A stretch of 64,000 nucleotides of DNA from a virus. This document shows positions 4,770 through 53,823 of the stretch, one piece after another (the first letter of the stretch is position 1; each line of letters opens with the position of its first letter). The notes under the pieces were generated by a model. It had not been told where the DNA came from. It ran no database searches and saw only the letters and a program-made list of their open reading frames with translations. Position numbers and translations under genes: made by a program. The stretch is from positions 15,362 to 79,361 of the IMG/VR virus record IMGVR_UViG_3300027905_000001; one strand, written 5' to 3'.

Positions 4770-4812
4770 TTACATTTTCACAACCCTCCCTACATGTTTG
4801 CTACTATATATC

Positions 4813-4841: not shown

Positions 4842-4875
4842 AAGTTAAGATCTAATTTTGAAGGAGGTAAACGGC

Positions 4876-32042: not shown

Positions 32043-32990
32043 TCATGTTAGTTTTTTACCAATTTCCAAGATAACTTTGGTAGTGCAAGCGTCACCAGCT
32101 CCTCGATACATTTGTGTGTCGCTAATTCCTGCAAGCATGACCTTATCTATGATTAAGTCAGATATGCTCTGAAGCCTCCAAAACTCACGAGGAGTTAGCC
32201 TTCTTAATCTTCCTTCAATAAGTATCTTGGGTTGCCTATTCCCGCCTTCACAGGGGGTTATGCAAGGACTTAAGCCATCAATTCCATATACTCTGCGAAT
32301 ATTGTCTTGACCATGTATATCCAGCATCCCGATGACATTAATCATTGTCATACCGCTGTGATTTCCCCCGCTATGTCCCCCTGCCGTTAATGTTCTAGCA
32401 ACTGTGGTTTTTGTTGACTTGCCGATTGTAGAATATTCGTTAACTTCGTATTCGAGAGGAAATACTTTTCCAGTACCTCGTCCTCTAAGATGTCCGACAG
32501 TGAACACCCTCTCCCGATTTTGTGGGACTCCGAAGTTTTTGCTGTTGAGCAGTTCCCACTCCACGTCATACCCCAGTGCGTCCATTTGATAGAGTATTTC
32601 GAGGTAGTCAAATCCTTTATTGCTGGATAGCATTCCCTTAACGTTTTCATAGAGAATATACTTGGGTCGATATTCTTCTGGAGTCTCCCTGACGAGTCTA
32701 AATACTTCTGAAACAAGAGAACTTCTGTCTCCCTCAAGCCCTGCTCGCTTTCCTGCAATACTAAAGTCTTGGCAAGGTGCTCCGAAGCACCACATGTCTG
32801 CCCTTGGAATGTCTGTAGCATTAGTTGCTCTAATGTCTGCACCTTCTGGCTCCTTCCCAAAAATTATTTTGTATATTTGTCGTTTGTGCTTGTCCCATTC
32901 AACCGAGTAAACACATTTATGTCCAGCTTGCTCCATGCCCATTCGGATTGTGCCGATTCCACAGAAGAGATCGATGAAGGTTAAATTCAT
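32043..32990 (-). CDS. DNA (cytosine-5)-methyltransferase
   Basis: Motif I DLFCGIG, motif IV PCQDFS, ENV, QNRERVF. Confidence 0.85.
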   Translation of the reverse strand: MNLTFIDLFCGIGTIRMGMEQAGHKCVYSVEWDKHKRQIYKIIFGKEPEGADIRATNATDIPRADMWCFGAPCQDFSIAGKRAGLEGDRSSLVSEVFRLVRETPEEYRPKYILYENVKGMLSSNKGFDYLEILYQMDALGYDVEWELLNSKNFGVPQNRERVFTVGHLRGRGTGKVFPLEYEVNEYSTIGKSTKTTVARTLTAGGHSGGNHSGMTMINVIGMLDIHGQDNIRRVYGIDGLSPCITPCEGGNRQPKILIEGRLRRLTPREFWRLQSISDLIIDKVMLAGISDTQMYRGAGDACTTKVILEIGKKLT

Positions 32991-37986: not shown

Positions 37987-39465
37987 ATGCATGGAATACT
38001 ATACCTGCGCAAAAGCAGAGAAGATGAGCAATATGAAAAAAATACTGGCGAAGATGTTCTGCAAACCCATCGCGAACGTTTGGTTATGCTCTGTAAGTCG
38101 CGGGAAATTACCTTCGACGAACGCGCAGAGGTACGAAGCGGTGATACGATCGCAGGTCGGCCTAAATTTCAGAATATACTAGATACGGATCTCCCCTCTG
38201 GTCAATACTCTTGTATCATTGTTACTGAAATTTCTCGACTTGGCAGAGGGGACATGGAGGATGCAGGAAGAATATACAAAACCATAATCCACAACGAGAT
38301 TAAGATTGTCACGCCGAATAAAATATATGATCCGTTAAACCCTTCCGATCTTCGCCAGCTAAGGTTCGAGCTATTCATGTCTCGGGAGGAATACGAAAGC
38401 ATTAAGGAAAGACTATGGAATAATAGAAATTACCGGGCAACACAAGGTTATGCCGGCAATTATATTGTCACGCTCGGTTTTCGCCAGTCCAGGGGGATAG
38501 TCGAGATAATCCCCGAAGAGGAAAAATTAGTGCTTGAAATATTTACGATGCGCTCTGAAAATTACTCCTATCAAGAAATAGCGGATTACTTTAATTCCAG
38601 AAATTTAAAGACAAAACGCGGAACAAAGTATCATGAATCTACAATATATAAGATATTAAAAAATCCCAGGTATATAGGAGTGGCTAAGTGGCAAGGCAAG
38701 GAATATATAGCTAAGCACCCTGCGATAGTCTCATTGGACCTATGGAACTCTGCGCAGGATATCAACGCTGAAAGACATCACAAGAGACGAGGGTCAAAAA
38801 ACGATAACCCTTATCTAGTAGAGCTATACTGTCGAGAATGCGGGCAAAGGATGTACGGGGAACGCTCTACCCCGCAAAGGGTAATAGATGGTGTTCGAAA
38901 GCTATATAAAAGCAGAGACATCTATATTTGTAGGGGCAGAAAAAGCATCCCTAAATGTTGGCACCACATAGGAGCCAGCGTTGTTCACTCGACCATCCTT
39001 GATGAGCTTGGGAAGATAATATCAGATCCGCAGATTTTTCTTGAGTTAGTCAACGAGAGAGAATCAAGACTTGGCGTCGATACTAATGGTTTATCAGATC
39101 AAGTGGATGAATTAAATAAGCAAGTCAAGGATAAAAACATCCTTTTGGTAAAAATAGAGAACGATTATGAAAAAGGCGACCTATCCGCTTTGCTATATAC
39201 TAAACACGTTGAAAAAATATCCAAAGAAATAGCATCTATTGAAGGTAGGATAAAAAAAATTAAGGCCGATTTATTAAAATCAGCCATTAAGATTAGTCCT
39301 CCTATGGAATTACAATCAATTTTGAAAACATTCCTAAATAACTGGAACGCCTATCCTAATAGTGACAAGAAGCTCATCATTAGATCATTTCTTCCCAGGG
39401 TTGAGGTGAACAAGCAGGGTGAATTCTTTATCGCTATTACTTTGCCTGATTCTATCGAAATTTAG
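37987..39465 (+). CDS. Large serine recombinase (phage integrase, serine type)
   Basis: N-terminal resolvase-type catalytic domain (YLRKSREDE), recombinase domain, Cys-rich zinc ribbon, C-terminal coiled coil; 492 aa. Confidence 0.8.
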   Translation: MHGILYLRKSREDEQYEKNTGEDVLQTHRERLVMLCKSREITFDERAEVRSGDTIAGRPKFQNILDTDLPSGQYSCIIVTEISRLGRGDMEDAGRIYKTIIHNEIKIVTPNKIYDPLNPSDLRQLRFELFMSREEYESIKERLWNNRNYRATQGYAGNYIVTLGFRQSRGIVEIIPEEEKLVLEIFTMRSENYSYQEIADYFNSRNLKTKRGTKYHESTIYKILKNPRYIGVAKWQGKEYIAKHPAIVSLDLWNSAQDINAERHHKRRGSKNDNPYLVELYCRECGQRMYGERSTPQRVIDGVRKLYKSRDIYICRGRKSIPKCWHHIGASVVHSTILDELGKIISDPQIFLELVNERESRLGVDTNGLSDQVDELNKQVKDKNILLVKIENDYEKGDLSALLYTKHVEKISKEIASIEGRIKKIKADLLKSAIKISPPMELQSILKTFLNNWNAYPNSDKKLIIRSFLPRVEVNKQGEFFIAITLPDSIEI

Positions 39466-39515
39466 CAAACGGGAAACCTTCCGACAATTTCAAAATAGGG
39501 AAGGTTTCCCGTTTG
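39466..39515 (+). terminator. 17-bp perfect inverted repeat after integrase stop (terminator or att-site candidate)
   Basis: caaacgggaaaccttcc / ggaaggtttcccgtttg around a 16-nt loop. Confidence 0.5.
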
Positions 39516-39520
39516 CGGTT

Positions 39521-39784
39521 TTATATCTTTCCTTCATATAATAAGGATTTCAAGAGTTCTATTCCGTCATTGAATCCCTGCTTATATGTATTTTCCAGAA
39601 GAGCATCCACTCTTGATGTTGATAATTCTTCATAGCGATCAAAAATATTTCTTTCCTTACCCAGTAATCTTATTATGTCAACGCTCAAGGAAATGGATTC
39701 TTTTATCCACTCACTGTAATCAGTTGTTTCTTTTGTTTTTTGATAAGCAACGCCAAAGATTCTTTCCGGCATCAGCTTGTCCAT
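39521..39784 (-). CDS. Hypothetical protein
   Basis: Track ORF. Confidence 0.3.
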   Translation of the reverse strand: MDKLMPERIFGVAYQKTKETTDYSEWIKESISLSVDIIRLLGKERNIFDRYEELSTSRVDALLENTYKQGFNDGIELLKSLLYEGKI

Positions 39785-40194
39785 GATAATATCAAGTATT
39801 TTTTCAGTCGGAATATTTTTTTCAATATCTATATCCTCATCTCCTGCCTGAATTTATGTTTTACCAGTCTCTATATACTAGAACGTGTGTTCTTAATTTT
39901 CAAGGGGTAATTTGTCGCAAAAGAAATAAATCGTTTCTCTTCCCCTTTCTCTCGCTACCCGTAGGAACAAAGTCCTACAATCAGTCCTAGATATAATTCA
40001 GAATATTTATTTAAGTTATTGACAGTATACGCTATAACGTTTGTCGAAATCGCGTGAAATAAAGGAGGCCAAATGTGAATATTTTGTGATTATAAATTAT
40101 ACTTAAGTCTACATATTATAATACCTGCTACATTTTTGTGTTAGCAGGATTAATCCTATCCTCTGTGGAAGTATTTTCCTATGGTGGTGAGGCG

Positions 40195-40416
40195 ATGGAT
40201 TTAGAAGATAAGTTAAAGGATAACAAAATACAATACATACTAGACAAGCGTGATATGTCGCAAAAAGACCTTGCCGCAACGCTCGGGTGGTGGCCGAGTG
40301 ACATAAGCGACATCGTTAACGGTAAGGTTAAGCGCCTTACGCTCATTCGCGCTTCGATGATATCCGTTGCTCTCGGGTATTCGGTTGAGTATATTTGGCC
40401 TACTTTATTCAAGTAG
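40195..40416 (+). CDS. HTH XRE-like regulator
   Basis: ATG after GGTGGTGAGG; MSQKDLAATLGWWPSDISDIVNGK. Confidence 0.5.
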   Translation: MDLEDKLKDNKIQYILDKRDMSQKDLAATLGWWPSDISDIVNGKVKRLTLIRASMISVALGYSVEYIWPTLFK

Positions 40417-40431
40417 GCCAAATATTTTTTT
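40396..40431 (+). terminator. Rho-independent terminator overlapping gene 3' end
   Basis: 9-bp stem tggcctact/agtaggcca then T-run. Confidence 0.65.
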
Positions 40432-40553
40432 ATATTTTTTTAGTCATAAAATTAGACTTTCGTCTATATACTTTATCACACCCAGTAAGCCACCGTCACA
40501 CCACGTCTTACACTATACTACGCCAGTCAGACAAAATTTTGAGAGGTGAGAAT

Positions 40554-40760
40554 GTGAAGAAAAGAAGAACTTTTTGGGACGGAGATGATCTTTGCTCAAA
40601 GCTAGACGCAATACCAGAAAATGAACTAAGTACCATAATCCGCATGGCACTACGAGCATGGTTTAAGATCGACAGCAAGCCCGAACTAACCGTTACCGAC
40701 GCAAGGCAGATAGCGCAGGAGCTGGTAAGGCAACGCAAAGTTGAAAGGAGCGAACGCTAA
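40554..40760 (+). CDS. Ribbon-helix-helix-like small protein
   Basis: GTG start after GAGAGGTGAG; RRTFWDGDDL...STIIRMALRAWF. Confidence 0.4.
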   Translation: MKKRRTFWDGDDLCSKLDAIPENELSTIIRMALRAWFKIDSKPELTVTDARQIAQELVRQRKVERSER

Positions 40761-40921
40761 TGTTCTGGAAGAAATCCATTAAAGCCTCCAAACTCTCAGG
40801 GCTTATCAAGGAAATAGCTAAGGCGGCATCATTAGTACCTTATGGGGATGGCGCGCTGGACTTAGGTTGGGAGGAACTAACCGTCAGTGATCTACTCGAA
40901 TGGATGGAGGAAAGTTTATAG
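40760..40921 (+). CDS. Hypothetical small protein (53 aa)
   Basis: TAATG coupling to upstream gene; not in track. Confidence 0.35.
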   Translation: MFWKKSIKASKLSGLIKEIAKAASLVPYGDGALDLGWEELTVSDLLEWMEESL

Positions 40922-40938
40922 GAAGTGAGGTTGAAATA

Positions 40939-41166
40939 ATGGACATAACTAAAATCCAAAAAATCGTTCGCAAGGCTATCAAGGACTACGCCATTACCGC
41001 AAAGTACGATGAGGAAATTCTAGTATCATTTCTCAGCGTGGATATTTTCCGGGAGATCAACGAGGATTCCCCGGCACCTCTCTCGGATCCCAAGGCTCCC
41101 CCTCGCCGCAATACTAACCAGAATGCATTAGGTCTGGTAAATCACGAAGCAGGTGAAACGCCATGA
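40939..41166 (+). CDS. Hypothetical small protein
   Basis: ATG after GTGAGG. Confidence 0.4.
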   Translation: MDITKIQKIVRKAIKDYAITAKYDEEILVSFLSVDIFREINEDSPAPLSDPKAPPRRNTNQNALGLVNHEAGETP

Positions 41167-42491
41167 GTGAAAAATCATCGTCCGTAAAGCCCGACCTGAT
41201 CGGCTTGACATCCTCTACTCTGGTCAAACTTGGACGCTTTGCCCTACGTCATATCGGCAGTCCCAACAACTCCTATGCGAACAAGATAATGCTGAACTGG
41301 AAACGCAATGACATATGCACCGAAACCAAAGAGCGAGGCAAGGATTACACAGAGAAGAAATACCCTACGCTAGTGGAAAAGACAATGAAGGGTCATAATC
41401 GAGTACTTAGATACAAGATACCCACCGGTCTAAATCCGCAGAAAGTCATGAAATCCCTCTACGACATCGAGTTCGATCTCAAGTCAGAAGTCCTATTCAA
41501 GCGACTTGAGAACGATCCCAAAGCGCACTTCTCACTCACTATCTTATCCGGCAAACTGTTAGACATTATCAACTACTCCAACGAGGCCAGTATTACTCCA
41601 GATGGCAAGGAGTTAAGCAAAGGTCTATGGATACCTCTAGGGTGGTCAAGAAGGGGCTTGGAACAACTTAATTTAGCCTCTAGCAACAGCCCTCATCTTA
41701 TGATCGGAGGGGCTACAGGAGGCGGCAAGAGCATCCTTGGCAGGCTTATCCTTGCTACCCTCCATATCCGCTATAACCGTGATGAATGCCGACTATGGCT
41801 CTGTGACCTTAAACATGGCAACGGCACAGCAAGGCTAGGGAAAAACCCTCTCCTTGTAGATAGGACTATTTCTGATCCGGGCGAAGCAGAACAAATGATG
41901 GACGATCTCTCTGTGATTATTGGCGAGCGATATAATTTATTTAAGGAGTATGAGTGCGACGATTTACAGGCGTTTAACGAGGAATATCCAAGATTGAGAT
42001 TGCCGCGCATTGTGGTTTATGTGGATGAATTAACCAAACTTGAGGGCAAGGAGTTCTCCAGGGCTCGTGAAAAGATGACTAAAGTCACGGGGGAATCCAG
42101 GGGTGCAGGAGTGCATGTTATTATCTCTTGTCACAGGCCCACAGCTAACCTTGTGTCCGGCACGATGAAGAACAATATCTCTGCCGTTGTCGCGTTTAAT
42201 TGCAACGCTGTATCGGCTCGTGTGTTGCTTGGAGAAGATCCGGAGGATTACAAGGCAGCCAGCATGATTGATCCAGATATCGAAGGTCGAGCATTGTTTA
42301 AATTTAAAGATGAGGTATTGCTGCAGGTCCCCTACATCGACAACCATGCAATCAAGTCCCTTATGGCCAACTATCAAAAAGCGATAATTAAAGGTAAGGT
42401 CGAGCCAGTGATACAGGCTGTTATTTCCACTAGGGTGGTTGAGCACTCAGTCGGGCACTCACTCGGTCATACTATTGAGCACCCCCAGTGA
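41163..42491 (+). CDS. FtsK/SpoIIIE-family DNA translocase-like ATPase
   Basis: Walker A GGATGGGKS, Walker B VVYVDE. Confidence 0.75.
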   Translation: MSEKSSSVKPDLIGLTSSTLVKLGRFALRHIGSPNNSYANKIMLNWKRNDICTETKERGKDYTEKKYPTLVEKTMKGHNRVLRYKIPTGLNPQKVMKSLYDIEFDLKSEVLFKRLENDPKAHFSLTILSGKLLDIINYSNEASITPDGKELSKGLWIPLGWSRRGLEQLNLASSNSPHLMIGGATGGGKSILGRLILATLHIRYNRDECRLWLCDLKHGNGTARLGKNPLLVDRTISDPGEAEQMMDDLSVIIGERYNLFKEYECDDLQAFNEEYPRLRLPRIVVYVDELTKLEGKEFSRAREKMTKVTGESRGAGVHVIISCHRPTANLVSGTMKNNISAVVAFNCNAVSARVLLGEDPEDYKAASMIDPDIEGRALFKFKDEVLLQVPYIDNHAIKSLMANYQKAIIKGKVEPVIQAVISTRVVEHSVGHSLGHTIEHPQ

Positions 42492-42614
42492 TTGTACTCA
42501 ACGATTCAATGCGCTTTATAGGCTCCTTTGGTCATGCCGTGCGGTCCGTAAAGTGCTTTATTATCCTTACTTTTTTATTTTGTATTTATTTTATATTTTT
42601 GCGAGGTGAAAATT

Positions 42615-43244
42615 GTGAACTTAGTGGCATATGGCAAGCAACGAGACGAACGAATTATGGGGCTAGTAGGGCTTGGGACAGCCTTTACGCGAAGCCAAAT
42701 AGAGCGAGTTATATTTAAGGGAAGTAAGCGTAAGGCTCAGACTAGACTGCAGGTGCTATCCGATTCAGGGCGACTAAAAAAGATTATCCGCAGTCCCCAC
42801 GAACCAGCCATCTATTGCCTCAAAAAACCCCGAAATATCGATCATTATTTACTTATCAATGAAATCTATTGTGCCGTAATGTCTCAGAAAAAGTCTTGGC
42901 ATATCGTCAAGTGGCAATGGTCATATCCAATTATGGAAGGTAAGATTTGGGCAGACGCAATGGTTGATATTTACGACCAACTCAATAAGCGTAGGCATGT
43001 TATATTTGTTGAGGTTGAGCGTTACGCAGACCGTAAGTTCGAGAAGGATAAAAAGTATTCAGCCATTACCAGCGCGAACTGGACGAAAGAAGAGTGGGCG
43101 ATTAAGGAGCCTACAAGGATATTGTTCCCGGCAATCCTAGTTGTCACCGAATGCAAATTAGAGGTCAAAAGCGAGTTGGATTTCTTTGTTGCCACGATGG
43201 ACCAAGTCAAAAAAGACATTTACTCTATTATCTTAAGGAGGTAA
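42615..43244 (+). CDS. Replication-relaxation family protein (putative)
   Basis: GTG after GAGGTGA; N-terminal winged-helix-like segment; assignment from memory. Confidence 0.4.
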   Translation: MNLVAYGKQRDERIMGLVGLGTAFTRSQIERVIFKGSKRKAQTRLQVLSDSGRLKKIIRSPHEPAIYCLKKPRNIDHYLLINEIYCAVMSQKKSWHIVKWQWSYPIMEGKIWADAMVDIYDQLNKRRHVIFVEVERYADRKFEKDKKYSAITSANWTKEEWAIKEPTRILFPAILVVTECKLEVKSELDFFVATMDQVKKDIYSIILRR

Positions 43245-43248
43245 CACC

Positions 43249-43467
43249 ATGGGTAAACTAGGAAAAGTGACCACAAAGGCCACCTATGGAATCCTGAATC
43301 TGGCGATGAAACCTATTTACGATCAGATGAAAAAAGAGAGAAAAGAAGAAGTTAAAAGATGGAACAAATCGCTAGATATAGCTTCTCAGGATGCAATGGC
43401 CGAGGCTAGATATTTTGAAGTAAGGCAGCCGTTTGATTCGATTATCCACAAGCACCCATTGTGGTAG
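43249..43467 (+). CDS. Hypothetical small protein
   Basis: Track ORF. Confidence 0.4.
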   Translation: MGKLGKVTTKATYGILNLAMKPIYDQMKKERKEEVKRWNKSLDIASQDAMAEARYFEVRQPFDSIIHKHPLW

Positions 43468-43490
43468 TAATGACAATAGTAATGACTTTT

Positions 43491-43570
43491 AGCCCCTTCG
43501 TAAACCGAGGGGCTATTTTAATGCCCTGACATAACGAAACCCCAGCATTTGCCGGGGGTTAGTTTTTATT
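43491..43570 (+). terminator. Two tandem hairpin terminators
   Basis: agccccttcg...cgaggggct + ATTTTAAT; aaccccagc...gccgggggtt + AGTTTTTATT. Confidence 0.55.
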
Positions 43571-43645
43571 CTCTATTATTTATGGCTATTCGGATTATAT
43601 GGTGGAAAATGAGTTTGGAATTTCCAGTTTTATAATAAATAATTA

Positions 43646-43700
43646 CTACTATTATAGCGTTATCGCTTGACAAATTATAGCGATAACGCTATAATAGTAG
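43646..43700. promoter_or_regulatory. Perfect 22-bp inverted repeat enclosing a consensus promoter (TTGACA-17-TATAAT)
   Basis: ctactattatagcgttatcgct (43646-43667) is the exact reverse complement of 43679-43700; -35 at 43667-43672, -10 at 43690-43695. Confidence 0.75.
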
Positions 43701-43763
43701 TAACAGCTAAAGATTACATGAACCCGACAGCCCATAAGGGGCGGGGCGAGAGGAGAATATAAA

Positions 43764-44624
43764 ATGGCAAATGAAGTCGTCAAGGAATACTACAAATGGG
43801 ATGAAACAGGTGAAGCTTTTGGCATAAGTATAAGCTACGATGCCGGAGATGACTGTGGTCCAGTTGCTGGGCTTAAACTAAGTGGTGGACAACCAAAAGA
43901 AGTCAACGGTCAAAATGTCGTTTGGTTCGAAAAAACAACCAAAGGTCAGCCCGTCGCCATAAAGTATAACAGCCGTCCCGATTTAGCAGCCCTTGTGAAC
44001 GAGTATAAAAAGTTTCAGGCTGAGCAACAAACAAGGCATAATACCCGGGCTGCTGCACATCAAGCCGAGCGGGAAGCCATAGACAACCCTCTACTTGAGG
44101 ACATGGAAGCAGAAGCTGTTGAATTGCGGAAAAAGATTCCGACCGGGCATATCGAGGTTGATGTCGAGGATAATGGCAATCTTGACGGCTATCCTAATTT
44201 AAAATACTCAGTAAACGGCGTTGAATTGCCTTGGGATAAGGTCAACCATATTGGCACTGCGAGTGCGATTCGCCCAGGCGCATTAGGTTCTTTTGCTCAA
44301 ATTTATGTCGTATCTATCGCCAAGGATCAAATCGAACAAATCAAAAAAGAGCAGGAAGAGAAATCGGCAATCAACCAAGCTAAAAAAGAGGCTTACCAAA
44401 GAGAATTAACTGGGACTATAATCCCTCCGGCGGCCTTAGAGGCTTACAACTATTACCACGGTGACGCAGAACTAGCATGGGAAAAAGAAGATGAATCCTC
44501 TTGGGCTCTTATTGAACGATGGACCACTTATATCGAGGCACAACATGGGATTGCCCCTCGTAAATTACAGCACATGGTTTCGGAATCCGCGCGCGAAGAG
44601 AATTATGGGATCAATGAGGGTTAG
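43764..44624 (+). CDS. Hypothetical protein (286 aa) under the palindromic operator
   Basis: RBS GAGAGGAG; track ORF. Confidence 0.5.
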   Translation: MANEVVKEYYKWDETGEAFGISISYDAGDDCGPVAGLKLSGGQPKEVNGQNVVWFEKTTKGQPVAIKYNSRPDLAALVNEYKKFQAEQQTRHNTRAAAHQAEREAIDNPLLEDMEAEAVELRKKIPTGHIEVDVEDNGNLDGYPNLKYSVNGVELPWDKVNHIGTASAIRPGALGSFAQIYVVSIAKDQIEQIKKEQEEKSAINQAKKEAYQRELTGTIIPPAALEAYNYYHGDAELAWEKEDESSWALIERWTTYIEAQHGIAPRKLQHMVSESAREENYGINEG

Positions 44625-44645
44625 TGGAGAGAGTGTTTGAAAAAA

Positions 44646-44680
44646 GAAAGAGCCGTAATCAATCGGCTCTTTCTGGATAA
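44646..44680 (+). terminator. Rho-independent terminator
   Basis: gaaagagccg / cggctctttc stem then T-rich. Confidence 0.6.
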
Positions 44681-44784
44681 CTTTTTATTTCAATCCACGC
44701 CTTACGGCGACAATCCTTGATGGGATTTATTACCCATAATATAATCCAAATAGCAGTATATGTCAAGACTAAGGAGGGCATTTC

Positions 44785-45492
44785 GTGAAAAAGAAACATC
44801 GGTCTATTTCGCAGATACTTGATAGATCGAAATCTGCCGAATCAAGAAGAGCTATCACTATAAATTGGTCAAAGTCATGGGAAAATGAGACCATGGAACT
44901 CATACGTAACCTTGAACAGGCTGTAAGGGCCATGGATTACGATCAGCTATGCATTAATACCAGGCAGCTTAAGGCGGTTACTCAAAAACGTTTTGGAGCC
45001 CTGCCAAATATATTTATGCACCTCACTAAGGCTGGTGCCGCAGAGAAAAACCCGGAAAAAGAACCCGAACCATTAGCCAATGCAGCTGTACAAGATATAC
45101 ACAAAAAGCAGGATGTCCCAAAAGAACCAGATGAGCCGAGCCATGCGGAGGAGCAGCATGTGCCCGGAATCTGCATAGACTGTGGTGTCAGTTTTAATGC
45201 TAAAACCAGCCGCCAAAAGCGGTGCCCCGAGTGCCAAGTTGAACACAACAAGGCGTTACGGTTAGCCGCGGCCAAGGCAACTCAAGATGTCAAAAGAGAT
45301 AGGCCTCTTTTGGATATCATGGAGGGATACATTACGGTAAAAGAATGGGCGAGCAAGCACGGTAAGAGTCCGTCCAGCGCTCAGAATATATTGTCCAATT
45401 CCCCTACTCTTGTACCAGCTGCCAGAAAGGTGCGCAATCCTCGCGGCGGCGTGGATATCTGGGTCGTACCAAAAGAGACAATATGGCCTTAA
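44785..45492 (+). CDS. Hypothetical protein with C-terminal zinc ribbon
   Basis: GTG start after AAGGAGGG; CIDCG...CPEC. Confidence 0.45.
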   Translation: MKKKHRSISQILDRSKSAESRRAITINWSKSWENETMELIRNLEQAVRAMDYDQLCINTRQLKAVTQKRFGALPNIFMHLTKAGAAEKNPEKEPEPLANAAVQDIHKKQDVPKEPDEPSHAEEQHVPGICIDCGVSFNAKTSRQKRCPECQVEHNKALRLAAAKATQDVKRDRPLLDIMEGYITVKEWASKHGKSPSSAQNILSNSPTLVPAARKVRNPRGGVDIWVVPKETIWP

Positions 45493-45513
45493 TAAAATAA
45501 AGGAATGATAGCG

Positions 45514-45693
45514 ATGGAACTTAAAGACGTACTAACAGGTCCCGAAGCTGCGCAACTTTGGAGCATTGGAGAGTCAACAGTCCGCAATGCAGCTGCGGCG
45601 GGTAAATTCAACGAAGACGAAGCTCGAAGGGCAGGGAAAAACTGGCTAATCACCAGAGAAGGCATGAAAAGAGTATTTGGTGATCCTAACTAA
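45514..45693 (+). CDS. Small HTH DNA-binding protein (excisionase-like)
   Basis: LTGPEAAQLWSIGESTVRNAAAAGKF...WLITREGMKRVFG. Confidence 0.45.
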   Translation: MELKDVLTGPEAAQLWSIGESTVRNAAAAGKFNEDEARRAGKNWLITREGMKRVFGDPN

Positions 45694-45800
45694 ATGGTCC
45701 ATACCATTTAGTTACAATTATGGAAACAGGGTTTTGATCATTCCACCATAAAATCCGCAGAGCCTATATTTCTTGGCTTTTAGGATATCTTCTGTATTTT

Positions 45801-46055
45801 TCACGCCTTATTCCTCCCATACTTCTTTTCGTACATTGGCTTAAGAATTGCATAAAAGTCGCAATCCTCCAATTTATTCCCATACTTATCCCTGAATTCA
45901 GCTTGCAGTTTTTGTCTAGGAATGTGGCAACTCCCTTTGTAAGGGCATTCGCAAGGCCCCTTGACCATCGTGTCGCCATAGCATTCTTTTTCTTTACAAT
46001 CGTGATGTCCTTGGCAGATAGGATATTCCATGTAATGGCCCGAGCATTCTTTCAT
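45801..46055 (-). CDS. Cys-rich small protein
   Basis: Track ORF. Confidence 0.4.
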   Translation of the reverse strand: MKECSGHYMEYPICQGHHDCKEKECYGDTMVKGPCECPYKGSCHIPRQKLQAEFRDKYGNKLEDCDFYAILKPMYEKKYGRNKA

Positions 46056-46420
46056 TATTTCATCTCTCTCCTAAAAATCTCATTAATCCTACCGACCATC
46101 TCCACCGGCAACGCAACCCGACACATCTCATAATTACTATAATCCGAAGGAGATATACCAAGTGACTTAGCCATCTTTGAGATAGTTATCTGTAACTCTT
46201 TTCTCTTAGCCCTAATCGATATCATTTGTACTTCATTCCTACTATTTGCCTTGACCACTTCTCTTATTTCTTCTTCTCGGTATTCCCTGATCGATTCCTT
46301 GGTCTGCTTTGTTAAGCAACTGAGGTTACGGCAATCGTATGTCCCGCCATGAGTTCCGTTCGGACCATCCCATAAGGCGAAAACGTATTTAGTCGGGTCG
46401 TTGCAGGTTTGACAGTTCAT
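46055..46420 (-). CDS. Zinc-finger plus HTH-like protein
   Basis: N-terminal CQTC...C..C; C-terminal ISKMAKSLGISPSDYSNYE. Confidence 0.4.
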   Translation of the reverse strand: MNCQTCNDPTKYVFALWDGPNGTHGGTYDCRNLSCLTKQTKESIREYREEEIREVVKANSRNEVQMISIRAKRKELQITISKMAKSLGISPSDYSNYEMCRVALPVEMVGRINEIFRREMK

Positions 46421-46606
46421 CTACTCATCCTCCTTCGTGCATCTTTTACCATTCCAGAACGCGCAATCAGCATAGCAACTCCAATTGTCTACACTAAATC
46501 CCATATAGCAATTCAATCGCTTCTGTTTATCTTGGGAAGATTCCAATATTGGTTCTCTATCTTCCACCGACCCATTTATCGCATGCCAATTTTCCTTCAT
46601 GTTCAT
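46421..46606 (-). CDS. Cys-rich small protein
   Basis: Track ORF. Confidence 0.35.
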   Translation of the reverse strand: MNMKENWHAINGSVEDREPILESSQDKQKRLNCYMGFSVDNWSCYADCAFWNGKRCTKEDE

Positions 46607-46805
46607 TTATTTAACCTCCCTACATGTTCGCAAGTATTGCACATCCACCCTTGAAAGTAAGAATTCCAATACGATAAGCAACCACATTTTGGACAGAGTT
46701 TCATTTATTTCCCCTCTTTCTTCTTCTTTTTGAGTTCTCTAATGCAATCCTGCCTCAAATATCAGATTGGCCATTATTCCGTTGCGAAGTGGTTGGGGGT
46801 ATTCT

Positions 46806-47060
46806 CTAAAATACACACTCGCACGGAAGTTCATCAAAAAAGCTCAATTGCTTACCATGCGTCTTGGCTAACTTCCAAAACTGAGCCGATGCAATATGCT
46901 CTGTCGCGGGAACATCATTACGCTTCATTTCTTCAAACATTGGTTCCATTTCATCGAGATACATATCCGACTTTATGGAGTGACCTATTTCATTTTCTGC
47001 CTCTTTTGCCTTTAACCATATGTCGGGTCGCGTCATATAAACGATGTACCAATGTTGCAT
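46806..47060 (-). CDS. Hypothetical protein
   Basis: Track ORF. Confidence 0.35.
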   Translation of the reverse strand: MQHWYIVYMTRPDIWLKAKEAENEIGHSIKSDMYLDEMEPMFEEMKRNDVPATEHIASAQFWKLAKTHGKQLSFFDELPCECVF

Positions 47061-47085
47061 CCCCGCCTTTAAACACCCAATGCAA

Positions 47086-47630
47086 TTAGCGTGTTTGAAT
47101 GTGCCGTAGGTCCCAGGGGGGAGTTATTCCTATTTCTTTTGTGCTTTTTATTGTGTGATCCCAAAGAATAAGAGGGTAGTCCGTCTTGTATCCCCTTATG
47201 CCTAATATTGACGAACGTCTTTGCGCTCTGCCTTTTTCCTTCTCCGACTTGTCGAATCCGTAGTATATGGTAACTTCTTCGCAAATTCCGTCTTTGACAG
47301 GGAAATTTTCCTTGAGGTATTTATCGAAGGGAACCGTTTTTATTCTGTTTGTGCAAAGTATTTGTCCTGCTCCAAACTTGAACCCTCCTACTTCTCGGCA
47401 TACATCGAATTGGTCTTTTACTTCCCATCCGTCCATATTTGCGTAGGTAATCGGAACGCCTATATAATTTGCTACATCACCCTTGAACCGTTTTATATCC
47501 GCATCCTCTACCCTTTTATTAATATCGTGATTAAGGAGGATTAAATCTTTAGTTCCGTATTTCCTAGCTACTTCTATTGCTGTTTTTGCCGAACTATGTC
47601 CTCCAGAGTAACAAATCAAGCGTTTTATAA
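47086..47630 (-). CDS. PP-loop ATP-pyrophosphatase-like protein (PAPS-reductase/QueC-like superfamily, putative)
   Basis: SGGHSS P-loop-like motif in LICYSGGHSSAKTA; start uncertain (track 47697 overlaps upstream HTH ORF). Confidence 0.35.
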
Positions 47631-47635
47631 TTATT

Positions 47636-47815
47636 TTACCTCCCCTTCTCGATCCATTCAAGGACCGAATTTCTCTCAATTCTCCAATCTCTGGCAATCT
47701 TAAACGCCCTTAGTCCTCCACTTTTAATTGCCCTCTTGACCGTTTGTTCGCTCACTTTTAAAAATGTTGCAAGTTCTTTAGGGGTTGTGATTTCTGGTAA
47801 ATTATCAAGTACCAA
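47636..47815 (-). CDS. Excisionase-family HTH DNA-binding protein (59 aa)
   Basis: TTG after GGAGG; TPKELATFLKVSEQTVKRAIKSGGLRAFKIARDWRIERNSVLEWI; not in track. Confidence 0.45.
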   Translation of the reverse strand: MVLDNLPEITTPKELATFLKVSEQTVKRAIKSGGLRAFKIARDWRIERNSVLEWIEKGR

Positions 47816-48051
47816 CTATATCTAACCTCCATTCTATTATATCTAAGTATATCACAAAATAGCATAGTTGTACATGTTAGCAAGGTAAAAAATGGTCAAT
47901 ATTTCTAGATACTTAGCCATTGTTGATAGTGACTTGCTTCGTCGTTCTTGCTTCGTTTATGGTTCGCGTATAGTTGTGATTTAGTAGCTCAACTTCGTCG
48001 TTCCCTTATAATCCGGTAAGAGGGAACGGAAACGTTTAGATAGTTACCCCC

Positions 48052-48597
48052 TTACGCCACGCCTTGTACTCTTAACACTTTCATAATCTCATCCTCAAGG
48101 TTTTCTAGTTTTCCAAATTTGTAATTTATCCTATAGAGCCTTATGTTATTGTCCCTACAATACCTGTTCTTTAGGACATCATGAGCTACCGTATTCCCTC
48201 CCCACTCATCACCCTCTTTATGCTGCGCCCCGTCAATTTCGATTAAAAAGGGCCTTAATTCTCCTTGGATATAGAAATCGAACCTCAATAATTTACCGTT
48301 TAAGCCCTTTAACCCTTTAAATGTTTTTTCTTTCTGGAATATAGCATTATACCTTGTTAATATTTCTATAGCCTTTTCTTCGCCGAATGATTTTCCCGTC
48401 ATGCAATTTCGACAAATAGGGTTTTTGATTAATAGCTTTCTTTTAACAAGCATGGTGTTGTTGCATTTAGGACATAGGCATTCGATCTTGCCATATTTCT
48501 TACCTAGATTTATAAGTCCACTAACTTTTAACTTCTCTTGATTTCGTTCAAAGTTAATTTGATTAGTTATGGCTTTCTGTGCCTTAGATTTACTCAA
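48052..48597 (-). CDS. DUF559/Vsr-like PD-(D/E)xK endonuclease with N-terminal zinc ribbon
   Basis: CLCPKC...CRNC; LRFDFYIQGELRPFLIEIDGAQH; probable TTG 48597 after AAGGAG (track ORF extends to 48765). Confidence 0.5.
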   Translation of the reverse strand: MSKSKAQKAITNQINFERNQEKLKVSGLINLGKKYGKIECLCPKCNNTMLVKRKLLIKNPICRNCMTGKSFGEEKAIEILTRYNAIFQKEKTFKGLKGLNGKLLRFDFYIQGELRPFLIEIDGAQHKEGDEWGGNTVAHDVLKNRYCRDNNIRLYRINYKFGKLENLEDEIMKVLRVQGVA

Positions 48598-49074
48598 CCA
48601 CAAACACTCCTTATATACGTTCTTAAAGAAGATCCGGTAGAGGGGCCGGAGGAAGGACAAAGTTATGCCCCTCATTCGAAGAAAATGGACTGTTTTAGTC
48701 CAAAATCCAAGAATGAGAGAAGCATATTTTAATTTATCCGTGTGTCGGTTCCTCGGATATCTCAAACCTAGTTGATATGTTGCTCTCGCAAATATACGCT
48801 ACTCTACTAACGCGCCCATAGAGTGGAATGTGCGTACACCCCGTCAACACGTCACATGCTGACCGCTATTTTAACCTCCTGTATGCCGTTTAAGGGCCGC
48901 CATCGCCCAACGCAAGGTCATAGACAAAACTAGGAATTATCTCGCTTGCGCCACCAGTTTGGTTATAAGCAGCCGGTAACTGCATATAGTTTATAGTGTG
49001 TTTATACTTCCACTAGACAAACACAAAGCGACAAACCCTTGACGGCCTGTCGCTGAAAATTCCTTAATTTACAC

Positions 49075-49897: not shown

Positions 49898-50107
49898 TTA
49901 TTCGCGCCGAGCTATGCTCGCATTTCCCCACATAACTGCTTCTTCAATAGCGGTTATGGCTAAGGATTGTTCTCTTGAGGGTGGGCATAACGTTAAAATT
50001 ATCTCAGCAAATGCTTTGCCCATGCCCCTAATTTCCTCGAACCTTTGTGCTTGCCCATCTTTCGGGTCATGATAAGTAAAACGGTTTTCCAATTCATTCT
50101 CATCCAT
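49898..50107 (-). CDS. Conserved small phage protein, unknown function
   Basis: RFTYHDP...SREQSLAITAIEEAVMWGNASIA; family not identified. Confidence 0.45.
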   Translation of the reverse strand: MDENELENRFTYHDPKDGQAQRFEEIRGMGKAFAEIILTLCPPSREQSLAITAIEEAVMWGNASIARRE

Positions 50108-50209
50108 GATAATTCCTCCTTAAATTTAATTTCGGCAAATATAAAAGCAGGCCATTACGACCTGCTTTGTTTTTATAAATCCCAATATGCCGGGATTGGG
50201 AAAGGTTGC

Positions 50210-50680
50210 TTATTCGATTATGGTCCAGTCTTCGACGAGCATATCGGTTTGTGACGCTAACCAGCCCATAAGAATTTTATTATCTGCCGTTTTCATGATG
50301 ATGTATGGCAAAACGTCCGCGCTCCCGCCATTTTCCTCAGCGAATTTCCGACTGTGTTTATTCCAGAATCCTTCAGCTTTCAAGCTGTTGGCTTCGGGGT
50401 GAGAAATTGCAATCCACATTGCTTTACCGTTCCAACCCTGACGAGCAACCTTAAAACCCTTTTTCATGGCTTCAATCGCCAATCCAAACGTCATACCATC
50501 AGTTTGGCGGTAGGCCGCCTCGAACACATCTTTAGGCGACCAACTTACATAATCATCCTCGCAAATAACCTTGTAGCCGTCTTGGCATTCTCCAGAATAA
50601 ACCAGGGGTCTTACTTGCTCGTTATACTCCGCAACAGTCATTGGTTCGGCATGAATAATTTTTACTCCAATATATTGCAT
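50210..50680 (-). CDS. DUF2829-like protein (Tad2-like candidate)
   Basis: MTFGLAIEAMKKGFKVARQGWNGKAMWI ... WLASQTDMLVEDWTII; internal ATG would give ~94 aa. Confidence 0.45.
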   Translation of the reverse strand: MQYIGVKIIHAEPMTVAEYNEQVRPLVYSGECQDGYKVICEDDYVSWSPKDVFEAAYRQTDGMTFGLAIEAMKKGFKVARQGWNGKAMWIAISHPEANSLKAEGFWNKHSRKFAEENGGSADVLPYIIMKTADNKILMGWLASQTDMLVEDWTIIE

Positions 50681-50867
50681 TTGCTTTTCCTTCTTTCAGT
50701 TTTTCATTTCGACAAATGCATACCTAATTATAGCCCCATCGACCATTTCACTAATCTAAAAATCCCATAGCAGGTTGCCCCGCCCCCAATCATCCCAAGA
50801 GCAATAACAACCTTGATGAGAGTATCAATTATTTTGGCATCTTTATCGGTTATCCCCCACATACTCA

Positions 50868-51671
50868 TTACCCCACCACTCCCAACACAGCTTTCATCGT
50901 TGCCCACCGATCAGCACCAGCCAGCAACGCAACCCCACTGGGTGCACTAGAACCCCCAACCTGATACTTAGTTGTCGCCATAGCTAACAATGCAGGAGTC
51001 GCAAAACTAGCCTGTACAATCGGGCAATTAAGCTTCAATGCCAAGTCTGCCGCAATCGGTAAATCTGCGTCTCCATAATAAAGCACTAAGTAATTCATAC
51101 TTCCTCCAATCTCCGGCCAACAGCCAGAACCGTAATTAATTTCGTTTAGGTCAACACTGATACCCGCTATTTGAGTATCGTTTTGATACTGATAAATGTC
51201 ATTGCCCTCGTGTATCTCACCGCCTGACCACGCATATGTCTGCCAATAGCGGTCAACGTCAAGGGCTTGCATGACCGCGTAAGAGCCGTAAACTCCTAAG
51301 AGGTATTTGCTCCCTAATCCATCGCCCACGCCCTGGAAATAGTCCACTATGGCTCCCATATCAGTAGATTGTGCGTCGAAGTCAACCGTGAAATATATCG
51401 CTATGCCGTTTGGTGCTCTGAGGTTGACGGCAGCTGTTATGGCTTGTGCTGCGTCTGATATGCCTTGATTGTAGGTGAAATAGGATGCGGTTGTGGGATT
51501 TGTTTCAAAGATGAGGAATACGGATAAGCTTGCATTGTGGATGGCTGTGAGTTCGGTTGGAGTTAATGCGTAATCGCCAGTGAGGTAGCGGCCTACGGCC
51601 ACTACTCCATCAGCTTTTAGGACTGTTACTATTGCCGCGGTTAAAGTTGCTGCACAATCTATCGCTTCCAT
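50868..51671 (-). CDS. Endolysin candidate: glycoside-hydrolase-like (DUF1906-type) domain plus cell-wall-binding-like C-terminus
   Basis: GVVAVGRYL, YFTVDFDAQ blocks; C-terminal LLAGADRWATMKAV resembles CWB2 repeats. Confidence 0.5.
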   Translation of the reverse strand: MEAIDCAATLTAAIVTVLKADGVVAVGRYLTGDYALTPTELTAIHNASLSVFLIFETNPTTASYFTYNQGISDAAQAITAAVNLRAPNGIAIYFTVDFDAQSTDMGAIVDYFQGVGDGLGSKYLLGVYGSYAVMQALDVDRYWQTYAWSGGEIHEGNDIYQYQNDTQIAGISVDLNEINYGSGCWPEIGGSMNYLVLYYGDADLPIAADLALKLNCPIVQASFATPALLAMATTKYQVGGSSAPSGVALLAGADRWATMKAVLGVVG

Positions 51672-52648
51672 TACTTTTGCCCCGTCTCGACCTTATAACC
51701 TTCGTTTTCAAGATTAGTTACCACAAAATCAGCTTGATCCTTCGTGATCCCGTTCACTTCGACGTAAAATGTAACCCCAGTTGCTTCCTCGGGCCCTTCC
51801 TCCACTCCCATTGTCGCCAATCCAGCCGCAACGCTGTCTGCTTGTGCTTTTGTTAAGCCTGTTACACGGACAAAGTAATCCACTAGTGCGGGTGCAGGAG
51901 TTACACTTGTCAGCGCTGCGAGATCAGCCTGCAGTTGTGTGAGATTAAAACCTTCGAGCGACAGGCCCTGACCGTTCAGCATTTCCGTCGAAAGTTGAGC
52001 CCAAGCCTCATCGCAATAAGTCTCGAAAAACTCCTTGGACATTTTTTGTACTGCACCCCACGTTATAACGCTTATCCAAGTTCCATCCCAGCCGTCAAAC
52101 TCTACGTCATGACCGCCTTCGATCGTCGCACCCGGAACGACTGTCCATGGTTGTCCAGCGCTAAACTGGTCCTGCGCTGTGGATGGCACTTGTATGCCCA
52201 GTTTTACATCTGACAGCAAGAAAGCCGCTTCGAGAATTTCATTGAAATTAGTTTGGTCTAAGGCGAGATAAGCGCCGATCTTATGGCGTATGCCGTTCGC
52301 GTCGATCATACCCGTTGTCCGCATGTATTCGAGCGCTGTCCTAATATCGGTGCCCTGGTCAGAGTTTGGATCATTCGGGTTATATCCCGTGATGGCCGAA
52401 TAGTCAGCAATTGCGTTGGCATCGGTAAATTGTGCTTGCTTACTTCCTTCTGCTGTCCAAAGCTCTACGGCATGGTCGCTACCTGCGATAACACAATCTC
52501 CAAGGGTGTCATTCGCCAACATGCCGTAATTACTTACGAGTGCTTGATGTCCGAATGTTGCAGGGATAGGTGGTAAGGCAGTACCTCTGTAATTTTTATA
52601 GAGCAGGTCTTTGTGACTTGGTTTAAATGGTTTTTTACCTAGTTTCAT
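51671..52648 (-). CDS. Lysis-cassette protein with possible Cys/His peptidase motif and two C-terminal repeats
   Basis: GDCVIAGSDHAVE; repeats VTGLTKAQADSVAAGL / VNGITKDQADFVVTNL. Confidence 0.35.
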   Translation of the reverse strand: MKLGKKPFKPSHKDLLYKNYRGTALPPIPATFGHQALVSNYGMLANDTLGDCVIAGSDHAVELWTAEGSKQAQFTDANAIADYSAITGYNPNDPNSDQGTDIRTALEYMRTTGMIDANGIRHKIGAYLALDQTNFNEILEAAFLLSDVKLGIQVPSTAQDQFSAGQPWTVVPGATIEGGHDVEFDGWDGTWISVITWGAVQKMSKEFFETYCDEAWAQLSTEMLNGQGLSLEGFNLTQLQADLAALTSVTPAPALVDYFVRVTGLTKAQADSVAAGLATMGVEEGPEEATGVTFYVEVNGITKDQADFVVTNLENEGYKVETGQK

Positions 52649-53031
52649 TTTGATACACCATCCTTTAAACTTTTAAGCATCTCCGTTTGCAGGTCTAATG
52701 TATGGGCAATATGCGTCAACGCTTTATGGTCCACATCTGCCTTAGCATCCTGACGGGCCTGAGCTTTGTTCTGGCTTCTCTGTAATGCTGGAAGCGCCCA
52801 CCACTGTATCCAGTTTGACGAGATTACAGCGAGCAGTACCTTCGTCCAGTCGGGCAGGGGCAGGACCATCAACGGCAGGATAAATGCTAAGTTAAACATT
52901 ATCCGACTAGCCAAGATGTGATCTGTAAGCCAGTCGATTAGATGGTCATTCAAGCGAGCGATCTTCTTTTCGCATTGCTTGGCTTCATTGATTAATTCAT
53001 TGGGGTGTGTCACCGCATGGTGCTGATTCAA
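52645..53031 (-). CDS. Membrane protein (holin-like candidate)
   Basis: Hydrophobic core IMFNLAFILPLMVLPLPDWTKVLLAVI. Confidence 0.35.
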   Translation of the reverse strand: MNQHHAVTHPNELINEAKQCEKKIARLNDHLIDWLTDHILASRIMFNLAFILPLMVLPLPDWTKVLLAVISSNWIQWWALPALQRSQNKAQARQDAKADVDHKALTHIAHTLDLQTEMLKSLKDGVSK

Positions 53032-53527
53032 TATCTTTTAACACCTTCTCTGCTGTTTCTCCACATTCTGGTACTGGATTTTCGTTATCCTTTGCCAATT
53101 TCTGCATAATCCAAGACGGAAACGTCATGTCATGGATGCCTGTTCCACTACCACCATCCTCATGATCTACGCCAGTGTGATGGCTCTGGCAGAGACAAAC
53201 GAGGCACCTAACATCATCCACGGTGGTTAGTGGTTGATTCTTCAGGAGCCTCCCGTAGCCATAAATGTCCCACTCTTCGACGAATGTTTTCAGCTTGTCA
53301 AAATTTATAATGCTGGAAAACATCCATTCTGCCTGATGATGAGACTGAAGATCCTCGGTTGTGCCGCAAATATAGCAAAAGTAATGCCCATCCTCTTTCA
53401 GACGGGCTTTTGACTTGCGAAATTCTGCGCTCTCAGTGCGTTCGATTGTGTTGGGGTCAATGATAACCTCGTGTAGCGTTCGTTTCATTTCGTGTGCAAT
53501 CATTGCCCATTCCCCTTCTCGTTGCAC
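52997..53527 (-). CDS. Zinc-binding HNH-like protein (putative)
   Basis: CYICG...SHH and CLVCLCQSHHTGVDHEDGG. Confidence 0.3.
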   Translation of the reverse strand: MQREGEWAMIAHEMKRTLHEVIIDPNTIERTESAEFRKSKARLKEDGHYFCYICGTTEDLQSHHQAEWMFSSIINFDKLKTFVEEWDIYGYGRLLKNQPLTTVDDVRCLVCLCQSHHTGVDHEDGGSGTGIHDMTFPSWIMQKLAKDNENPVPECGETAEKVLKDIESAPCGDTPQ

Positions 53528-53823
53528 AACTGATTCAGCCGCAAATGAGCCGACTTGGTAGATTCATCGATTCGCGCAATTGCTACGGCATGATCAGAGA
53601 GTTGGGTGGAATGACCTTCCAGCTTGCGGTTTGTGTCCCGCTGTTCGAGGAGTATGTCGTCTGTGCGTTGCTTGATGTAAGTAATATCAGCCTGTTGCTC
53701 CCCGGTCTTAGCCCCTGCTGAGTATGTGTCTTTTTTTGCGCCCCGAGAATATCCCCAATAGGCAGATATGATGCCACAAATCGACCCTGCGGCTACAATG
53801 TACGAGACGGTTGTTTGATCCAC
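53500..53823 (-). CDS. Membrane-anchored coiled-coil protein
   Basis: N-terminal TM then charged region. Confidence 0.35.
   Translation of the reverse strand: MDQTTVSYIVAAGSICGIISAYWGYSRGAKKDTYSAGAKTGEQQADITYIKQRTDDILLEQRDTNRKLEGHSTQLSDHAVAIARIDESTKSAHLRLNQLCNEKGNGQ

Follow-up and report, generated by a model that had tools for sequence, protein, structure and literature searches.

Predicted Tad2 and Acb2 sponge genes side by side in the lysis cassette of a Desulfosporosinus temperate phage

Introduction

Bacteria possess immune systems that trigger abortive infection through nucleotide second messengers, among them Thoeris, CBASS (cyclic-oligonucleotide-based antiphage signalling system) and Pycsar (pyrimidine cyclase system for antiphage resistance). 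Phages counter them with sponges, proteins that sequester the messengers. Two families of sponge, Tad2 (also known as DUF2829) and Acb2, are the subject of this report. Members of both appear to be encoded side by side at positions 49898-50680 of a window of 64,000 nucleotides (nt), positions 15,362 to 79,361 of the virus record IMGVR_UViG_3300027905_000001, where they lie within a lysis cassette, flanked by its endolysin and its holin.

Structures of Tad2 include those of HgmTad2, also called AcrIIA7 (PDB 8KBI-8KBM and 8WJC), and SPO1 Tad2 (8SME). HgmTad2 contacts glycocyclic ADP-ribose (gcADPR) through W21, N22, G23, M76, W87, L88, S90, T92 and D93, and binding is lost in the mutants W21A/N22A and S90A/T92A/D93A (Li et al.). 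A second pocket, made by R31, N85, F70 and S47, receives cyclic di-GMP (cGG) or cyclic GMP-AMP (cGAMP); it is a feature of a Tad2 subfamily and does not define the family. In MoTad2, cyclic UMP (cUMP) sits at an interface between protomers, the same one that HgmTad2 uses for dinucleotides.

Which signals a given sponge neutralizes has been surveyed in a screen by Hadary et al. (bioRxiv 10.1101/2025.08.24.671296) that tested 18 Tad2 homologues as well as the 46 Acb2 homologues used for comparison here. Three of these proteins matter below. The metagenomic homologue Tad2_70 was active against type I Thoeris and against both Pycsar systems, those that signal by cyclic CMP (cCMP) and by cUMP. Acb2_44 inhibited both cyclic UMP-AMP (cUA) and cGAMP CBASS; in plaque assays it was inactive against type I Thoeris, type IV Thoeris and E. 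coli Pycsar, and no collapse of cultures was seen when it was tested with type II Thoeris or Bacillus Pycsar. The only system that Acb2_4 inhibited was cGAMP CBASS.

Sponges are also found joined to one another. Sequestin (PF21825) was discovered through its fusion to Tad2 and to Acb4 (PF13876). A June 2026 preprint (10.64898/2026.06.04.730250) describes a cluster, or hotspot, of anti-signalling genes in N4-like phages. It also describes the protein RyR Tad, whose N-terminal domain has a fold of unknown function and is often encoded alone; in the crystal two copies of this domain pair by domain swapping, and alone it does not inhibit type I Thoeris.

Here we report a computational analysis of the two genes in the window. 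The first encodes a Tad2 domain preceded by a domain without a family name, and the second encodes a minimal member of the Acb2 family. We conclude that they are probably two separate, adjacent counter-defence genes, each specifying a self-assembling sponge for the nucleotide second messengers of abortive infection. The argument draws on family membership, fold, conserved pocket residues, the nearest tested relatives and genomic context, and from these we infer the oligomeric state of the proteins, their actual ligands, the timing of their expression and their benefit in the host. Analysis of the additional domain suggests that it is a widespread companion of sponges of several kinds.

Results

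Two genes on the minus strand

The region under study contains two open reading frames (ORFs) on the minus strand, 50210-50680 (156 amino acids, aa) and 49898-50107 (69 aa). Transcription at the locus runs from high to low coordinates. The parts of the region are as follows.

50495-50680, minus strand: N-terminal, beta-rich domain of about 60 aa in the 156-aa protein (residues 1-62), with no Pfam or NCBIfam family
50210-50494, minus strand: Tad2 (DUF2829) domain, residues 63-156 of the 156-aa protein, and the stop codon
50144-50168, minus strand: terminator-like hairpin between the two genes (11-pair stem, 3-nt loop, U-rich tail), present in the centroid fold
49898-50107, minus strand: 69-aa protein, predicted minimal Acb2-family sponge (Acb2/Tad1 hairpin domain, PF24729)

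A first-pass annotation, made from the letters of the DNA, had described a DUF2829/Tad2-like protein and a conserved but unassigned 69-aa partner as an anti-defence pair placed between lysin and holin, noting that DUF2829 proteins include the Thoeris sponge Tad2; it had proposed a profile search and structure prediction among its checks. Both ORFs are real at those coordinates and contain every peptide string that it quoted. The hidden Markov model (HMM) search upholds the DUF2829 call, with a match to Pfam PF11195 at E=1.7e-23, and structure prediction gives a confident helical hairpin for the 69-aa protein (predicted local distance difference test, pLDDT, 96.5). Other parts of the description need to be refined. 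The pair and its location stand, but as two independent sponges for different signals. The smaller ORF is conserved, as had been said, but it can be assigned: it belongs to the Acb2 family by its match to PF24729 (E=1.8e-20) and its 59% identity to Acb2_44. Thoeris is a fitting target for the Tad2 domain (type I, with Pycsar possibly added, by its nearest relative), whereas the 69-aa protein points to CBASS. The extra N-terminal domain of the 156-aa protein had not been singled out.

The Tad2 domain of the 156-aa protein

The match to PF11195 covers residues 63-155 with a score of 83.4 bits (cut-off 25) and spans profile positions 1-73 of 73. The Tad2 fold, a helix leading into an antiparallel sheet that carries insertion loops, is present in the protein, and sequence matches in the PDB agree. 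By alignment, the residues with which HgmTad2 contacts gcADPR correspond, in the same order, to W83, N84, G85, M129, W140, L141, S143, T145 and D146. These pocket positions are invariant or nearly so across 49 homologues. The second pocket is different: R31, N85 and F70 of HgmTad2 are replaced by S93, M138 and V123, and the insertion differs too, so that cGG/cGAMP specificity is not predicted for the 156-aa protein. HgmTad2 has an N-terminal extension too, a helical one that bears no relation to the N-terminal domain found here.

Among the tested Tad2 proteins the closest is Tad2_70, with 59.6% identity over 94 residues; the next best reaches 46%. Both the gcADPR pocket and a long insertion with the motif FW...NGG.A.VLP are common to the two proteins. 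Tad2_70 is a single-domain protein of 97 aa, whereas the 156-aa protein adds the 62-residue N-terminal domain. Judged from its conserved pocket, the Tad2 domain very probably sequesters 3' cyclic ADP-ribose (3'cADPR), the type I Thoeris signal; by analogy with Tad2_70, it possibly sequesters cUMP and cCMP as well.

Database labels suggest another function. The top PDB sequence match of the 156-aa protein was deposited as 'Inhibitor of Type II CRISPR-Cas system / AcrIIA7', and several phage records label its homologues 'anti-CRISPR protein'. That the protein is an anti-CRISPR like AcrIIA7 is nevertheless most improbable. Li et al. found that the inhibition of Cas9 by AcrIIA7/HgmTad2 was not reproducible in vitro or in vivo and that the protein is a gcADPR/cGG sponge, and Yirmiya et al. 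concluded likewise for the DUF2829 family.

The 69-aa protein is a minimal Acb2

The match of the 69-aa protein to PF24729 (Acb2/Tad1 hairpin) scores 73.3 bits (cut-off 27) and extends over profile positions 1-58 of 58. The AlphaFold2 model consists of a short helix, an extended segment (10-18) and two antiparallel helices (19-40 and 45-68). Its top neighbours in the PDB, as found by Foldseek, are Tad1, T4 Vs.4 and Acb2, with template-modelling (TM) scores of 0.69-0.70 to Vs.4 and Acb2. A profile built from 38 homologues matches the structure of Acb2_43 (PDB 9ptq) at E=9.5e-7 and Tad1 chains at 1e-3. Similarity to Tad1 is confined to 20-25 residues, and the hallmarks of Tad1, an N-terminal beta-sheet domain before the hairpin and a C-terminal RGVEGT motif, were not found in the 69-aa protein, which consists of the hairpin only.

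The nearest tested homologues are Acb2_44 (59.4% identity) and Acb2_4 (52.4%). They have 67-70 aa and the motifs FTYH...R...SRE.SLA.T..EEA.MW.NA in common with the 69-aa protein, which differs from most family members in having G61 in place of A. Classical Acb2 proteins (PaMx33 Acb2 and T4 Vs.4) are only 16-19% identical to it and carry an insertion of 20-30 residues between the two long helices, although the helical-hairpin fold is the same and the Tyr/Lys and Arg/Thr sites fall in matching alignment columns. Since this insertion is the main difference, we describe the 69-aa protein as a minimal Acb2. The corresponding residues, each pair in the same MAFFT column, are these.

Y12, corresponding to Y11 of PaMx33 Acb2: the stacking Tyr of the cyclic-dinucleotide site
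R27, corresponding to K26 of PaMx33 Acb2: the basic residue of the cyclic-dinucleotide site, 15 positions after the Tyr
R45, corresponding to R67 of PaMx33 Acb2: site for the trinucleotide cyclic tri-AMP (cA3)
T52, corresponding to T74 of PaMx33 Acb2: cA3 (trinucleotide) site, 7 residues after the Arg

Within the family of the 69-aa protein each of the four is at least 90% conserved, and R27 is invariant. For the Acb2 of T4, it is the geometry of the pocket and not the Arg and Thr residues alone that determines cA3 binding.

Could both proteins be directed against Thoeris, making the pair redundant against one system? The sole solved structure that the family profile matches significantly is that of Acb2_43, a short Acb2 homologue, bound to 3'cADPR; His13 of the 69-aa protein aligns with its ligand-contacting His5, and Arg27 with Lys19. 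Type I Thoeris was, moreover, inhibited by 10 of the 46 Acb2 homologues in the screen (10.1101/2025.08.24.671296). The likeness to Acb2_43 amounts to only 37.5% identity over 40 residues, and the other contacts differ (T4 to Y12, L6 to D14, V7 to P15 and K55 to A63). Tyr12, which takes the place of one of them, is the stacking residue of the dinucleotide site. Because most of the Acb2_43 contacts are changed and the much closer relatives Acb2_44 and Acb2_4 inhibit CBASS and spare Thoeris, we consider it unlikely that the 69-aa protein binds 3'cADPR in the manner of Acb2_43. A CBASS sponge remains the preferred description.

An N-terminal domain that accompanies several kinds of sponge

Residues 1-62 of the 156-aa protein (hereafter the N-domain) have no match in Pfam or NCBIfam, and no solved relative was found by profile search. 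The fold weakly resembles Tudor/SH3-like barrels. An exhaustive phmmer search returned 1026 cluster representatives at E<=1e-3. The domain is conserved, with the motif YIGxK..A.PM...GY.V.Y.DGY.SWSPK.VFE.AY. Residues G35, S46, W47, P49 and F53 are invariant, and Y3, K7, Y36, Y40, Y44 and Y57 are nearly so. An HMM of the domain scored at most 1.5 bits against 48 reference sequences of Tad1, Tad2, Acb2, Sequestin, Lockin and Acb5; Acb4, which lies outside that set, was seen only as a fusion partner defined by Pfam. The comparison rules out that the N-domain is Lockin, Acb5 or Sequestin. Lockin is also disfavoured because it is reported to be absent from the INPHARED genomes, while the N-domain occurs in 83 INPHARED records.

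Architectures were counted in the best 149 of the 1026 representatives. Standalone N-domain proteins of 58-106 aa make up 46 of them (about 31%); in 85 the domain is followed by a C-terminal partner, in 17 it lies in the middle or at the C-terminus, and in one (P0164) it is duplicated in tandem. The fusion partner is Tad2 in 41 cases by Pfam, or 46 by a dedicated HMM, PF21825 (crAss001_48) in 7 and PF13876 (N4 gp49/Sf6 gp66) in 4. One protein, P0289, joins the N-domain to Tad1 and ends in the typical RGVEGTH motif. Eighty IMG/VR loci with the N-domain were sorted in the same way: N-domain and Tad2 in 59, N-domain and Acb4 in 10, N-domain with Sequestin and Tad2 in 1, an unrecognised partner in 7 and no partner in 3. 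At nine of these loci, additional sponge genes, separate from the one with the N-domain, lie no more than 2.5 kb away.

Isolate phages have the combination with Acb4 too, in gp41 of crAssphage (positions 1495-1944 of locus L216) and gp7 of Clostridium phage CP51 (2492-2956 of L215); both are annotated only as hypothetical or N4 gp49-family proteins. The N-domain is also homologous to the N-terminus of RyR Tad, gp68 of Pectobacterium phage CB1 (41.9 bits). Like the 156-aa protein, RyR Tad places this domain ahead of a gcADPR-binding sponge domain, but there the C-terminal sponge is a helical domain like Repeat12 of the ryanodine receptor and not Tad2. Whenever the partner can be recognised it is Tad2, Acb4, Sequestin, Tad1 or RyR-Tad. 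The N-domain thus appears to accompany sponges widely, in at least five families that are unrelated to one another.

What does this companion contribute? The conservative reading is an assembly module, a domain that only dimerises or scaffolds, stabilising or cross-linking sponge oligomers with no ligand of its own. The crystal of RyR Tad argues for this, since the homologous domain is a domain-swapped dimer there and is without activity against type I Thoeris when alone (10.64898/2026.06.04.730250). Several facts sit less easily with it: the large standalone fraction and the tandem duplication among the best 149 representatives, the ability of Tad2, Acb4, Sequestin and Tad1 all to oligomerise with no N-domain, and the aromatic or polar character of the invariant residues (Y, W, S and K), which is unlike a plain hydrophobic interface. 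We judge the chances of a pure assembly module to be about even.

The frequent occurrence as a standalone gene, together with the aromatic and polar invariant residues, suggests instead that the N-domain may itself bind something. It shows the same 'guilt by fusion' signature that revealed Sequestin, and a fusion search based on Pfam would miss it because no Pfam model exists. That it is an undescribed anti-signalling module, either a new sponge for another signal or a dedicated partner domain of sponges, is a tentative proposal that we hold to be possible but somewhat doubtful.

A probable insertion between endolysin and holin

In the direction of transcription, the order at the locus is the 325-aa protein, the endolysin, a 46-aa ORF, the 156-aa gene, the first hairpin, the 69-aa gene, the holin and a second hairpin. 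The flanking features, all on the minus strand, are as follows.

51671-52648, minus strand: 325-aa protein, phrog_19005
50868-51671, minus strand: endolysin with an Rv2525c-like glycoside-hydrolase domain (PF08924, E=3.5e-30) and a C-terminal domain; phrog_13480 endolysin, E=7.9e-41
50728-50868, minus strand: ORF of 46 aa that contains a single hydrophobic stretch and separates the endolysin from the Tad2-like gene; a gene call in the public assembly (contig L001)
49300-49812, minus strand: holin of 170 aa, Holin_LLH (superfamily 6; PF09682, E=2.2e-14; PHROG holin families), a gene call in contig L085
49256-49283, minus strand: terminator-like hairpin after the holin, an 11-pair stem and then CTTTTTTATT, at the end of the cassette

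In a related phage with a 62% identical endolysin, the lysin is followed directly by the holin, with no sponge genes between; the pair in the window therefore looks like an insertion. The gene for the protein nearest to the 156-aa one (83% identity) also comes directly after an endolysin, of a different type. This homologue, and the placement of both genes between endolysin and holin, would fit a pair of lysis accessories such as an antiholin, a spanin or a lysis regulator. We regard such a role as very remote, given that both proteins fall into families of soluble sponges (E<=1e-20) and have retained the ligand pockets, that members of both families usually lie outside lysis modules, and that the phage with the related endolysin does without these genes.

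Are the two genes a unit? The other family was sought within 5 kb of 80 IMG/VR loci with Acb2-like genes, 80 IMG/VR loci with Tad2-like genes and 39 loci from bacterial genomes. A Tad2 gene is present at 1 of the 80 loci with close relatives of the 69-aa protein (L068), and an Acb2-like gene at 2 of the 80 Tad2-like loci, with a strong match at L145 and a weak one at L162. Both families occur at a single bacterial-genome locus (L202), bringing the total to about 4 of 199. At this frequency an obligate two-gene module can be rejected. The rarity of co-occurrence elsewhere and the hairpin that separates the genes favour two independent sponges over a two-component unit.

The pair at locus L202 (positions 4738-5195 of that locus) belongs to a prophage of Paenibacillus bouchesdurhonensis (NZ_LT732548.1) and lies just upstream of the terminase genes. 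There the stop of an 85-aa Tad2 gene overlaps the start of a 67-aa gene resembling Acb2_4, so that the two are translationally coupled; the Tad2 resembles the pan-Thoeris inhibitor Tad2_71. This is an independent Tad2–Acb2 two-sponge cassette. L202, L068 and L145 are from other, unrelated phages. The combination of Tad2 and Acb2 thus arises repeatedly, with different family members and in different surroundings. Such proximity fits the clustering of anti-signalling genes in N4-like phages (10.64898/2026.06.04.730250).

A convincing sigma-70 promoter was not found for either gene. About 45 nt before the start of the Tad2-like gene there is a TATAAT, without a -35 element, and a strong ribosome-binding site, AAGGAGG, precedes the 69-aa gene. 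By default, we take both genes to be transcribed together with the late/lysis genes, with the hairpin between them. In the Logan contigs of run SRR6195974 the assembly breaks within this hairpin, the end of contig L001 and the start of contig L085 overlapping exactly on its 29 nt. Population heterogeneity at the gene junction (50100-50215) was considered and rejected: the break is a de Bruijn artefact of assembly at a palindrome.

Source of the DNA and neighbouring genes

The public database source of both proteins is a 123.5-kb contig of Candidatus Desulfosporosinus infrequens (Desulfitobacteriaceae). The carrier of both genes is a Desulfosporosinus prophage, that is, a temperate phage of an anaerobic, sulfate-reducing Firmicute of peat soil. 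Neither a closely related sequenced phage nor near-identical phage DNA was found in INPHARED.

Genes of the tail-fibre type (Big_2, glycine-rich, Laminin_G_3) occupy 53.8-64 kb of the window, upstream of the cassette. Between them and the lysins lie an HNH endonuclease (phrog_8048; 52997-53527, minus strand) and a 128-aa membrane protein (52645-53031, minus strand); a 107-aa protein with an N-terminal hydrophobic stretch is found at 53500-53823. The phrog_19005 protein (51671-52648) takes the position that in two related loci, L208 and L002, belongs to proteins whose N-terminal domain is a papain-like Peptidase_C1, fused in L002 to Amidase_2. Judged by position, it may be a second lysin, of the peptidase type. 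The 46-aa ORF (50728-50868) matched no family in profile searches that included Pfam and PHROG; it might be a small membrane protein of the holin or antiholin kind.

Directly downstream of the cassette, window positions 37987-48765 hold a large serine recombinase, FtsK/SpoIIIE, a Replic_Relax-like protein and several helix-turn-helix genes. This segment, between the late and the early genes, looks like either a mobilisable element of the integrative kind or the lysogeny module of the phage itself. The early region encodes two DNA methyltransferases, of the C5-cytosine type (32043-32990, minus strand) and the N6/N4 type (23853-25079, minus strand). They are likely to serve in anti-restriction, and the phage would then be multiply armed against host defence. 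A 666-aa protein (29019-31019, minus strand) has no Pfam match and matches LmuB, the ATPase of Lamassu that resembles structural-maintenance-of-chromosomes proteins, weakly in PADLOC (E=4.7e-5).

Discussion

The two genes suggest a simple scheme. In the first, the N-terminal beta domain is fused to a Tad2 domain, predicted to form a tetramer, that would bind 3'cADPR (1''-3' gcADPR) in its W-N-G / S-x-T-D pocket and may bind the Pycsar signals cUMP and cCMP at a second interface, if Tad2_70 is a fair guide. In the second, a predicted hexamer of the minimal Acb2 would trap the cyclic dinucleotides of CBASS (3'3'-cGAMP and 3'3'-cUA) between Tyr12 and Arg27 of two protomers; cyclic trinucleotides may be trapped at the Arg45/Thr52 site. 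With both sponges at work, Thoeris and CBASS, and perhaps Pycsar, would be blunted in the host. The pair would be an accessory insertion between endolysin and holin, probably transcribed with the late/lysis genes.

Several observations weigh against this scheme. A late lysis operon is an unusual place for sponges; the Tad2 genes of other Firmicutes phages are found where the early region ends. A scan of ten window proteins turned up no genes of CBASS, Thoeris or Pycsar, methyltransferases being the only defence-related genes there. The Foldseek E-values for the model of the 69-aa protein, a small helical protein, are not significant alone (0.7-1.7). In both families specificity shifts over short evolutionary distances, close clades differing from one another, and 19 of the 84 sponge homologues screened inhibited none of seven systems (10.1101/2025.08.24.671296). 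Given such shifts, an identity of about 60% to a tested homologue is only suggestive of the ligand.

How does the locus compare with other multiple sponges? As in the fusions Acb4-Tad2 and Acb4-Sequestin and in the N4-like hotspot, several sponges are gathered in one locus or polypeptide and would cover several immune signals. The difference lies in arrangement and setting: here Tad2 and Acb2 are separate genes in the lysis cassette of a temperate Firmicutes phage and not part of an early-gene hotspot.

Both genes belong to known, experimentally characterised families, and automatic UniRef names already assign both. What the analysis adds is their unusual place, in a lysis cassette carried by a temperate phage whose host is an anaerobic Firmicute, the pairing of a Thoeris/Pycsar-type with a CBASS-type sponge, and the extra N-terminal domain. 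The wider value may lie in this domain. Represented by one published structure, it could lead to a sponge specificity not seen before or to a general principle of how sponges assemble, and a profile model for it would improve the annotation of thousands of phage proteins.

For the biology of the phage and its host, these findings extend two experimentally defined counter-defence families to a temperate phage whose host is an anaerobic sulfate reducer living in peat. They imply that signalling immunity of the Thoeris and CBASS types, and possibly of the Pycsar type, shapes the conflict between phage and host in that lineage, and that a lysis cassette can carry sponge genes along as accessory cargo.

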